Source: a virus
Taxonomy: Duplodnaviria > Caudoviricetes
Reading direction: 5' to 3' (one strand)
Length of the DNA stretch: 64,000 nucleotides
Virus record (IMG/VR): IMGVR_UViG_3300042892_000699
Each line of letters opens with the position of its first letter. Position 1 is the stretch's first letter. The notes beneath the pieces were generated by a model, which was not told where the DNA came from, did not search any database, and saw only the letters and a program-made list of their open reading frames with translations. A program made the translations under genes and the position numbers. Of the stretch, positions 9,675-11,319 are shown piece by piece.

Positions 9675-10226
9675 ATGCGTATAAATGAGTTAATTGTTAA
9701 ACAACAACTAGATGAATTAAGCCTAGCCGGGGCTCTAGGATCAGCAGCAAGAGGTACTGCAAATGTTGTAGGCGGTACTAGAGGTGCTATAGCAGGCGCT
9801 AAAGATGTGTTTAATCAACGAGCAGATCGAGTTGCTAATGTTGCTCAGAGACGTGTTCAACAAGCTGGAGGTTATAAAGCCCCACCAGCTCCTACGACTA
9901 CTGTGGCACCTCCAGCTACTACAGCTCAAACTAATACAGCACCTGCTACCGGAACCACCGCTCCCGCTAATACAGCACCTGCTACAAATGCAGCTAGTCA
10001 AGGAAAAGTGGGCGAACCAGCAGGAACAACACCTGCCACTACAGCAAACACAGGAAAAGTAGGTGAACCTGCAGGTCGTCAAGCAATTGACAATGCAATT
10101 GCTACCATTAAGGCAGTTAGGGGTGATCGCAGACCTCAAGTAGTTGCATACGGAATACAACAATTAGGTACCGTAAAAGAATCTAACCTAATATTTCACA
10201 GCAATTTCTTAGGTAAAGATATTTAA
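9675..10226 (+). CDS. Ala/Thr/Pro-rich late protein, possible internal head protein
   Basis: N-terminus 'MRINE...QLDE', low-complexity PAT-rich middle, GKVGEPAG x2; follows TATAAATA. Confidence 0.6.
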   Translation: MRINELIVKQQLDELSLAGALGSAARGTANVVGGTRGAIAGAKDVFNQRADRVANVAQRRVQQAGGYKAPPAPTTTVAPPATTAQTNTAPATGTTAPANTAPATNAASQGKVGEPAGTTPATTANTGKVGEPAGRQAIDNAIATIKAVRGDRRPQVVAYGIQQLGTVKESNLIFHSNFLGKDI

Positions 10227-10441
10227 AAGAACGGTAATTGCGTTTCTTTTGTCAATTCTAAGTTTCCTTCGATAATCTTATTCAGCAAATCTCGATCTTC
10301 GGGCGTTAACAAAAATGCTTCGGAGAACGAAAGTCCTCCTCTCATATACCAACTAAATCTAAAAAGTTCTTCTCTTAAGGCTTTTGTATCAACTTCATAT
10401 TCGGTAACAAGTTTATTGATACCATCGGTATCAAGATACAA
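10223..10441 (-). CDS. gp51-like baseplate hub/tail assembly chaperone segment; probably expressed as a -1 frameshift extension of the upstream gene
   Basis: 'YMRGGLSFSEAFLLTPEDRDLLNKIIEGN' resembles short gp51/chaperone C-terminal segments. The only start is a TTG with no well-spaced SD, and the frame is -1 relative to 10447..11319. Confidence 0.6.
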   Translation of the reverse strand: MYLDTDGINKLVTEYEVDTKALREELFRFSWYMRGGLSFSEAFLLTPEDRDLLNKIIEGNLELTKETQLPFF

Positions 10442-10446
10442 AAGCC

Positions 10447-11319
10447 TTATACGAAAAAAGTTGCAGGATCAAACACCAACGGCACATCAACTGTGTCTCC
10501 AGTAATTCCCTTTTCTCGCATTTCATCAGTAACTGTTACTGTGACTGGTTTTAATTCGTTGATGCTTTTTAACGCATCTAGATGCGTTTGAACGATATTA
10601 AAAATATCTTTATCGGCATTTTCAATAAATTCTTTAATGTGCTTGAGATTTTCAGTACTTCCATTAGAACTGTCAATTTTAAATATACTTTTTTCAACAA
10701 CGCCAATAGTAACATCTGTTAGTTTACTGAAGCTTTCTTTAAACGCAGCAACTTTGTCAGCTTCATTCATTTCATTATTATTTGCAATTTGTAAAATCTT
10801 TTGAGTTTCAAATGTTTTTACTGCACTGTCACTGAGTTGTTTATATGTCATGGGGCGCACAAATATTGTTAAATCTTCATTAATGGGTACAATAGGATCC
10901 CATTTTATTTGATACATCAATGTGTCCATTACTTGTTTTAAGTCGACACTATACTCCATCTCTAAGTCGTCACCGAACGTAATGGGAGTTGTCATCTTTT
11001 CCCCGTAGGTTGCAAGTCTGATTGCAATTAAAATAACATCTAAATCAATACTGGGAATTGACCATGCGTTCTTTATGTTGGGCATACAATGCTGTACAAC
11101 GTCCACAACCGCCTGACCGCTCATAATAGCATCGGGGATTTTAAGCATTAGTTCGTCTTTGGCAGTCATTGAGAACACAGGAAACTCACCTGTTTCAGTT
11201 TGCTCAAGACTTCCAGCAGGCCAGAATTCTCCTCCGCTGGGCAAGCGAATATATATTTTAGGCTGTCGCATAAATCCAGAAAGTGGATTTGCATGTATTT
11301 GTTGTGGATTTGAAACCAT
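10447..11319 (-). CDS. gp26: Baseplate hub assembly protein, gp26-like
   Basis: 'NPLSGFMRQPKIYIRLPSGG', 'MTAKDELMLK' and 'DLDVILIAIRLATYG' are gp26-family motifs; GGAG SD. Confidence 0.75.
   Translation of the reverse strand: MVSNPQQIHANPLSGFMRQPKIYIRLPSGGEFWPAGSLEQTETGEFPVFSMTAKDELMLKIPDAIMSGQAVVDVVQHCMPNIKNAWSIPSIDLDVILIAIRLATYGEKMTTPITFGDDLEMEYSVDLKQVMDTLMYQIKWDPIVPINEDLTIFVRPMTYKQLSDSAVKTFETQKILQIANNNEMNEADKVAAFKESFSKLTDVTIGVVEKSIFKIDSSNGSTENLKHIKEFIENADKDIFNIVQTHLDALKSINELKPVTVTVTDEMREKGITGDTVDVPLVFDPATFFV
10453..10459 (-). other. Candidate -1 programmed ribosomal frameshift site (U UUU UUC)
   Basis: Minus strand reads ACT TTT TTC GTA TAA. A -1 slip continues CGT ATA AGG CTT TTG TAT CTT..., open into 10223..10441. 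Confidence 0.65.

Follow-up and report, generated by a model that had tools for sequence, protein, structure and literature searches.

The 64,000-nucleotide (nt) stretch of viral DNA analyzed here, called the window below, comes from the IMG/VR virus record IMGVR_UViG_3300042892_000699 (Duplodnaviria; Caudoviricetes) and contains a gene of the T4 gp26/gp51 family of baseplate hub assembly proteins, from which a programmed -1 ribosomal frameshift would produce both a short form of 290 amino acids (aa) and a C-terminally extended long form of 365 aa. We assign this reading a probability of about 0.85. An original prediction, made from the letters of the window alone, had proposed that this gene carries a canonical -1 slip site near its end, fusing it to the open reading frame (ORF) downstream, and the conservation of the site together with a downstream RNA stem now supports that proposal, the product itself being predicted. 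That ribosomes slip at this position, and at what rate, we infer from the signal and its conservation, the stem, and relatives carrying the long form either in frame or as a second gene, all of which can be read directly. Judged from sequence comparison, the signal is real and strongly conserved, and it belongs to a family not known to use frameshifting. The elements of the signal are as follows.

11319..10447, minus strand: 0-frame gene of the T4 gp26/gp51 family with an ATG start, encoding the short product of 290 aa (P0001); from the ORF listing and its translation.
10459..10453, minus strand: slippery heptamer U_UUU_UUC in the X_XXY_YYZ register; read from the sequence.
10452..10447, minus strand: 6-nt spacer GUAUAA, including the 0-frame stop UAA (10449..10447); read from the sequence.
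10453..10226, minus strand: predicted -1 extension of 76 codons (P0002), beginning R-I-R-L-L-Y-L-D, with its stop at 10225..10223; from translation.
10446..10435, minus strand: 5' arm of the stem, GGCUUUUGUAUC, pairing with 10390..10379 and beginning 6 nt after the heptamer.
10390..10379, minus strand: 3' arm of the stem, GAUACAAAAGCC; from the covariation test and RNAalifold.
10434..10416, minus strand: inner hairpin UUGAUACC-GAU-GGUAUCAA in the loop of the long-range stem; from the minimum-energy fold of the window.

The 290-aa gene ends GCA ACT TTT TTC GTA TAA, so that the perfect heptamer said to precede the stop is indeed present, and, as in a programmed -1 signal, it lies in the X_XXY_YYZ register of the 0 frame and is followed by 76 open codons in the -1 frame. 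Translation likewise agrees that this frame runs through R-I-R-L-L-Y-L-D into the small ORF of the ORF listing (72 codons, TTG 10441 to 10223, minus strand), and recomputation returned the two product lengths that had been predicted, the fusion consisting of 0-frame residues 1-289 and the 76 codons of the -1 frame (365 aa), with ...PATFF passing directly into RIR at the junction. The -1 frame is closed by a TGA 5 codons before the slip point, and in the 0 frame the UAA comes one codon after it; only a shift within 10468..10450 can therefore be productive. In the mechanism that we propose, most ribosomes would stop at the UAA at 10449..10447 and release the short form, while a fraction would slip back by one base on U_UUU_UUC at 10459..10453, the likely trigger being the stem 10446..10435 / 10390..10379, which would stall the ribosome with the heptamer in its P and A sites. 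Slipped ribosomes would then read the -1 frame to 10226 and complete the long form, in which the last residue of the short form is replaced by a helical C-terminal domain of 76 residues.

The slip site is conserved among close and distant relatives alike. In a sample of 80 IMG/VR loci with 61-82% protein identity (one locus truncated), TTTTTTC was found in register at 80 of 80, together with a 0-frame stop one codon further on and a -1 ORF of 75-77 codons. At 25-30% identity, the heptamer is again in register in Agrobacterium phage Atu_ph07, Sinorhizobium phage Phosso, Pseudomonas phage PA5oct, Klebsiella phage RaK2, Vibrio phage 2.275.O and Xanthomonas phage XaC1, as well as in the RaK2-like metagenome loci L090-L092 and in a 141-kb marine contig (L099); few further loci came from searches that used the RaK2 or the Atu_ph07 protein singly as the query. 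Counting distinct homologous loci, T_TTT_TTC is identical and in register in 74 of 74, down to 27% protein identity, and both the heptamer and the -1 register, which had been singled out as the features to follow in homologues, are therefore kept. The two Phe codons of the slip site are TTT first and TTC second in every one of these loci, and the codon before them is ACT, CAT, AGT, AAT, GCT, CGT, TAT or GAT, standing for eight amino acids and always having T as its third base. The 0-frame stop is located one codon past the heptamer in 68 of the 74 loci and 3, 6 or 11 codons past it in the others, and the sequence from the heptamer to about 20 nt downstream is invariant or nearly so; third positions elsewhere vary freely. 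Genes of the family in which the Phe-Phe is present and the slip is not are written differently: T4 gene 26, which has no slippery site, ends GAG TTC TTT GAG TTA CTA TAA, and the short gene of locus L094 ends GAC TTC TTT CAG AAA AAA TGA (protein ...DFFQKK). Since both spell the dipeptide TTC TTT, the slippery spelling appears to be avoided when it is not needed, and the site is conserved beyond the requirement of the protein sequence.

A frameshift signal is expected to include a stable RNA structure 5-9 nt downstream of the heptamer, and here a stem follows after the 6-nt spacer. In an alignment of 62 distinct sequences, 95.6% of the cells of this stem form standard pairs, and 42 cells carry double changes versus 8.8 +/- 2.4 in shuffles (0 of 500 reaching the observed count), while sliding the partner by 1-3 columns as a control brought the pairing down to 29-51%. 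The same helix was predicted independently by RNAalifold, and the window segment 10452..10375 folds with -29.4 kcal/mol (z -7.1). The inner hairpin at 10434..10416 belongs to the window fold only and is absent from the family consensus structure. The stem is retained via compensatory changes in Atu_ph07 (GGCUCUUUGU / ACAAAGAGCC) and Phosso (GGCUCUUG / CAAGAGCC); PA5oct, the Vibrio phage and L099 have other hairpins, also beginning 6-7 nt after the heptamer, and the folds downstream of the heptamer in RaK2 and XaC1 are not clear-cut. Combined with this stem and the -1 ORF, the conservation of the heptamer is beyond chance.

The extension is kept in length and sequence across all loci (alignment A2), and relatives of it are numerous in databases, with 877 returned by one search and 492 by a profile search, in which the extension profile A2 was run against 1.84 billion representatives and matched mostly free-standing ORFs of 44-100 aa, as gene-called. 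None of the six GenBank records that were examined has a joined coding sequence (CDS). In PA5oct (L003:4371-4593) and RaK2 (L086:3850-4213), the conserved -1 extension falls in an annotated intergenic gap, and these records therefore lack the long product altogether; outside the RaK2 and PA5oct records, the extension is annotated as 'hypothetical protein'. PHROG and Pfam scans of four extensions at an expectation value (E) <= 10 gave noise only, PF06528 (P2 GpE) being absent from the results. The same domain, PF06528 (phage P2 GpE, the P2 tail chaperone), is recorded on 21% of the members of a 60-aa look-alike cluster of P0002 in the Atlas, at a score of 0.87, which is below the lead threshold.

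Further support for a long form comes from relatives in which no shift would be required. Among the matches of the extension profile search are 18 cluster representatives, 319-351 aa long, whose C-terminus is formed by the extension in frame. At the junction they read ...L-D-x-x-x-x-F-R-x-[KR]-[LI]-[LI]..., which aligns collinearly and without an indel with the predicted ...F-D-P-A-T-F-F-R-I-R-L-L.... An AlphaFold2 (AF2) model of one such in-frame long form (P0128) reached a predicted local distance difference test (pLDDT) score of 88.9 and a predicted template modeling (pTM) score of 0.85, its extension forming four helices with pLDDT 84-92; a shape search of the Atlas with this model aligned residues 1-266 only, leaving the extension outside the alignment. 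These homologues indicate that the fused architecture is functional elsewhere, and the trans-frame product of the window is the predicted counterpart. The in-frame long genes immediately follow a separate short PF12322 gene of 276-303 aa, and the two-gene contigs share a common synteny of portal gene, tape-measure-like gene and divergent hub genes. The tandem pairs of these uncultured relatives (L094, L098 and P0250 contigs) thus resemble the window in gene order, in the presence of the same extension domain on the long gene (profile E 1e-11 to 1e-21) and in the position at which the short gene stops, a short distance beyond the C-terminus of the shared domain and, in L094, just after the Phe-Phe. 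They differ from the window in consisting of two genes with no slip site, the paralogues being 17-23% identical to each other: the L098 short/long pair has no TTTTTTC, and the junction of the L094 long gene reads ACA TTC AGA. Among complete genomes, Atu_ph07, Phosso and PA5oct have one phrog_150 gene each and T4 has two. Because the lineages without the slip carry separate short and long genes in the same genomic slot, both forms are presumably needed, and the extension would add an extra contact.

Some observations weigh against a ribosomal slip and would fit other accounts of the same sequence. In the window, a TTG at codon 4 of the -1 ORF is preceded, just 3 nt upstream, by AAGG; where the 0-frame stop is TGA, as it is in approximately 16% of the loci, it is overlapped by an ATG (ATGA), making translational coupling also possible; and gene callers, as well as several GenBank records, annotate a separate small CDS. 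All of this would be expected if there were no recoding and the 72-76-codon ORF were a small gene of its own, translated either from a start of its own (TTG 10441) or by reinitiation after termination at the overlapping stop, an explanation that we nevertheless regard as unlikely. The -1 ORF of PA5oct contains no ATG, GTG or TTG whatsoever, and eight other loci have no start codon before codon 29, which lies within the W-Y-M-R-G-G core of the conserved domain. The TTG of the window is replaced by TTA in several relatives, an alternation that fits a Leu codon, and the ATG, at codon 2 of the -1 ORF, occurs only in loci whose overlapping 0-frame stop is TGA, because it is forced by the overlap with that stop; it is a by-product of stop-codon choice. 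The claim that the TTG is the only start holds for the 5' end of the -1 ORF, where it is the sole one, but an in-frame ATG is also present at codon 36. The R-x-R-L-L motif (R1, R3, L4, L5), nearly invariant and among the best-conserved residues, lies upstream of every candidate start. A small gene with a start of its own would, moreover, leave unexplained both the invariance of the heptamer at synonymous sites and the stem 6 nt downstream of it, and it sits poorly with relatives in which the domain is fused in frame and collinear over the junction.

A long form could also arise at the level of transcription, if RNA polymerase added or dropped a base on the T6 run and left a fraction of the mRNAs in frame for it. 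Some mobile elements and phage genes do rely on transcriptional slippage, and the homopolymeric run is located exactly at the junction; efficient slippage, however, typically needs a run of 8 or more, for which six T are short. The run is also of exactly T6 and followed by C in 74 of 74 loci with the X_XXY_YYZ register kept, a constraint that matters for tandem tRNA slippage and not for polymerase slippage, and a covarying stem at a 6-nt spacing is a hallmark of ribosomal -1 frameshifting, so that we consider this route very unlikely. Finally, the heptamer might simply follow by chance from a conserved Phe-Phe, with the downstream frame being open by chance or representing a decaying remnant. 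The Phe-Phe is conserved in the protein, T4 gp26 included, and in the AT-rich window TTTTTTCG is not rare, with 4 occurrences versus 2.3 +/- 1.6 in shuffles, so that a lone heptamer is within chance. Yet in Phe-Phe genes that do not need the slip (T4 gene 26 and the L094 short gene), the dipeptide is written TTC TTT and follows a base other than T, T TTT TTC stands in all 74 slipping loci behind eight different preceding codons, and the extension, with hundreds of relatives, is under clear protein-level constraint. Coincidence can hardly be credited, and a programmed -1 frameshift is the reading that we carry forward.

As to the identity of the short form, P0001 matches phrog_150 'baseplate hub' at E 4e-9 over residues 12-251 (3.4e-10 in the genome search), and the homologues in its alignment either match phrog_150 at E 1e-24 to 1e-33 or have PF12322 on record. 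The AF2 model of P0001 (pLDDT 82.6, pTM 0.78) has as its top BFVD match 'Baseplate hub assembly protein, bacteriophage T4-like' (E 5.5e-21, template modeling [TM] score 0.82/0.83, 290 columns), one of 56 matches at E <= 1e-3 that include gp26/gp51-type proteins of many myoviruses. The gp26-like identity first proposed for the gene is borne out by the phrog_150 match and by these folds. A solved relative was not found: Foldseek against the PDB gave nothing below E 0.5, and a wide VIA search gave only helical-hairpin matches (Z <= 8). What speaks against the assignment is that P0001 matches neither PF12322, even at E <= 10, nor any other Pfam model; the clade of the window has diverged too far for that model to recognize it, and we place the protein in the family by its phrog_150 match, its fold and the chain of relatives. 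Both CxxC pairs of a putative zinc ribbon are missing from P0001, which has a single Cys (C78), while the four Cys are kept in T4 gp26 and gp51, Atu_ph07, RaK2 and 18 of the 18 in-frame long forms; of the tandem pairs, the L094 short gene is also without them and the L098 short gene keeps them. Their absence from P0001 is a lineage-specific loss, and the CxxC pairs are not a defining feature of the Pfam family.

Comparison with T4 shows both the relationship and its limits. T4 gp26 and gp51 each match PF12322 and phrog_150, covering profile positions 14-235 (gp26) and 13-280 (gp51), and gp51 is therefore a paralogue of gp26 that is longer by about 48 residues at its C-terminus; it also carries PF28602 Gp51_C. 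The N-terminal domain of the window protein belongs to the same family (phrog_150 E 4e-9; BFVD E 5.5e-21), the short form in both systems stops just after the conserved Phe-Phe while the long form runs past it, and the genes lie in a hub and tape-measure neighborhood in both. In contrast to the one gene of the window, however, T4 has a pair of separate genes that are transcribed divergently, and it lacks a slippery site (GAG TTC TTT), the separateness of gp26 and gp51 having been correctly stated at the outset. In the T4 record, gene 26 (L004:2803-3429) is further annotated with a second product, 26', from an internal in-frame start, corresponding to the C-terminal 95 residues of gp26, and T4 gene 26 therefore also yields two proteins, by a different mechanism.

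Whether the extension corresponds to the part of gp51 that gp26 lacks was assessed by profile comparison. Both are appended right after the C-terminal Phe motif of the shared domain. In hhalign, a broad extension profile aligned with the gp51 profile (38-64 on 221-247) at P 0.015, which is weak (P 0.015-0.05 across runs), and against the last 60 residues of gp51 alone the extension gave P 0.0019; in the controls, 3 of 200 column permutations reached the score, and the reversed profile scored 9.8 versus 18.8. The phrog_150 alignment of the natural long form P0128 crosses the junction and extends to profile position 270, and PF28602 Gp51_C is found on 11% of the members of an Atlas look-alike cluster of 68-aa viral ORFs, which is a lead only. 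The fused profile aligned collinearly with that of gp51 (22-355 / 5-249) without reaching significance (P 0.18), and the long-form profile aligned with it in the first zinc-ribbon region only (E 6e-4). Several searches count against the correspondence: pairwise BLASTP of the extension against T4 gp51 produced no alignment; phrog_634 (the C-terminal half of gp51), run against six frames of Atu_ph07, PA5oct, RaK2 and the Vibrio phage, left the -1 ORFs unmatched; the 120 closest homologues of the extension have no Pfam domain on record; and PF28602 is on record in none of the in-frame long forms, nor in any of the 11 proteins returned by a profile search with the 18 of them. On balance, we somewhat favor the view that the -1 extension is the gp51 C-terminal tail, the sequence support being weak but consistent. 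The 72-codon ORF had been described as gp51-like, a description that does not fit it as a whole, since gp51 is a full gp26 paralogue and the extension is at best its tail of about 48 residues.

The window forms part of an IMG/VR record of 125,876 bases with an estimated completeness of 36%, and the 72-aa ORF is identical to one on record in a 376-kb contig, which is why we take the source, an uncultured T4-like phage, to be giant. The neighboring genes are as follows.

11391..13493, plus strand: tape-measure-like gene (700 aa), divergent from the hub gene; phrog_794 E 6.6e-11 and phrog_167 E 1e-9, each labeled 'tail length tape measure protein'.
13500..15200, plus strand: T4-type portal gene, directly after the tape-measure-like gene; PF07230 E 2.9e-111.

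A prohead protease gene and then a gp23-type capsid gene follow downstream of the portal gene. The hub gene and the tape-measure-like gene are separated by a 71-nt intergenic region and transcribed in opposite directions, and hence the hub gene does adjoin a tape-measure-like gene, identified by its PHROG matches, as had been claimed, but on the divergent strand. The synteny of portal, tape-measure-like and hub genes also occurs in PA5oct, RaK2, XaC1, Phosso, L098 and L099. Several further features were seen in these neighborhoods. On the plus strand of the window, a convergent ORF of 183 aa with no Pfam or PHROG family (9675-10226) has a 4-nt overlap with the stop of the -1 extension. On the minus strand, the ATG of the hub gene is preceded at a distance of 40 nt by GATAAATA (11359-11366), which has one mismatch from the T4 late-promoter consensus, which we take to be TATAAATA; a simple promoter and terminator scan of the sigma-70 type around the hub gene was at background level. 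The P0250 contig (ENA ERZ1426850, genes 1-1632) encodes a T4-type portal of 1081 aa with a weak intein-splicing match between two Portal_T4 matches, which suggests that its portal gene is interrupted by an intein. In the marine relative (L099:5919-6347) and the matching P0255 contig, a homing endonuclease of the SegE-type GIY-YIG class lies between the hub gene and a gp46-like gene.

The history of the short/long pair was approached with a maximum-likelihood tree of the shared domain (35 rows), which is effectively unrooted and has several long branches. T4 gp26 is sister to the gp51 group (100/99), most of the in-frame long forms make up a cluster (93/87), and the L094 short gene falls, on a long branch, inside the slipping clade of the window (97/100). 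This topology suggests that the two-gene state arose more than once. Since gp26 and gp51 are each other's nearest relatives in the tree, the T4 pair looks like a separate duplication, and it would then represent a parallel solution and not one-to-one orthologues of the two forms, as the tree suggests. By having the lineage of the window keep the frameshift, the original prediction implied an ancestral slip, a point that the tree does not establish.

With respect to function, Leiman et al. 2010 (PMC3004832) count both gp26 and gp51 among the hub assembly chaperones and describe the latter as essential, of unknown function and absent from the particle. The PA5oct record carries a flag for detection by electrospray ionization tandem mass spectrometry (ESI-MS/MS; virion) on the portal and on the tape-measure-like protein, and none on the hub gene. 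The short and long forms probably have a chaperone role and, by analogy with T4 gp26/gp51 and lambda G/GT, would be nonstructural chaperones in the assembly of the hub and tape-measure complex. Lambda G/GT (as well as P2 E/E+E' and Mu) resembles the window in several respects: (i) a chaperone-type gene has a slippery heptamer close to its 3' end, (ii) the whole short product is shared by a C-terminally extended long product, (iii) the gene adjoins the tape-measure gene, and (iv) in logic, both forms are needed. Differences from the lambda arrangement have to be set against these likenesses. The gene of the window is divergent from the tape-measure-like gene, whereas lambda G/GT is located directly upstream on the same strand, after the tube gene, and there is no tube gene upstream of the hub gene in the window. 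Its protein is far larger than lambda gpG (290 versus about 140 aa), and searches of Pfam, PHROG, the PDB with Foldseek and the wide VIA set revealed no similarity in sequence or fold to known tail assembly chaperones. Comparison with the profiles of the tail assembly chaperone families, suggested as a means of testing the equivalence with G/GT, thus produced no Pfam or PHROG chaperone match; the layout and logic are analogous, but a chaperone family or solved-fold match is missing. A complex prediction for the tape-measure-like protein (700 aa) with the short form scored 0.00 and, having been run without controls, is uninformative either way.

Frameshifting by -1 in tail assembly chaperone genes is a classic feature of long-tailed phages that T4 and its relatives are not known to share; its conservation was reportedly described by Xu, Hendrix and Duda in 2004. 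We found no report of the present slip in the open-access literature searched, and the PA5oct paper mentions neither a frameshift nor the hub gene. If the proposed reading is correct, the gp26/gp51 hub assembly chaperones, for which the searches showed no relation in sequence or fold to known tail assembly chaperones, use the same trick, with a signal that ranges from freshwater metagenome phages to the cultured jumbo phages PA5oct, RaK2, Atu_ph07 and XaC1. Annotation of giant-phage genomes would be corrected accordingly, the extension being unannotated in RaK2 and PA5oct or called 'hypothetical protein' in others. It is conceivable, though we hold this only tentatively, that the gp26/gp51 family is the T4-superfamily counterpart of G/GT and that short and long forms are a universal need in building tails that contain a tape measure, met by slip or by duplication. 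An equally tentative part of this idea is that the slip serves most giant T4-like phages, and duplication T4 (gp26 as the short form, gp51 with Gp51_C as the long one) and some uncultured lineages. If true, T4-like phages would no longer count as apparent exceptions to the frameshift conserved among tail chaperones. The finding would also explain the two paralogues of T4 and offer a testable handle on the roles of gp51 and gp26. Slip, tandem genes and divergent genes would be three interchangeable solutions in one syntenic slot and, as such, a natural experiment on the need for a fixed short-to-long pair.

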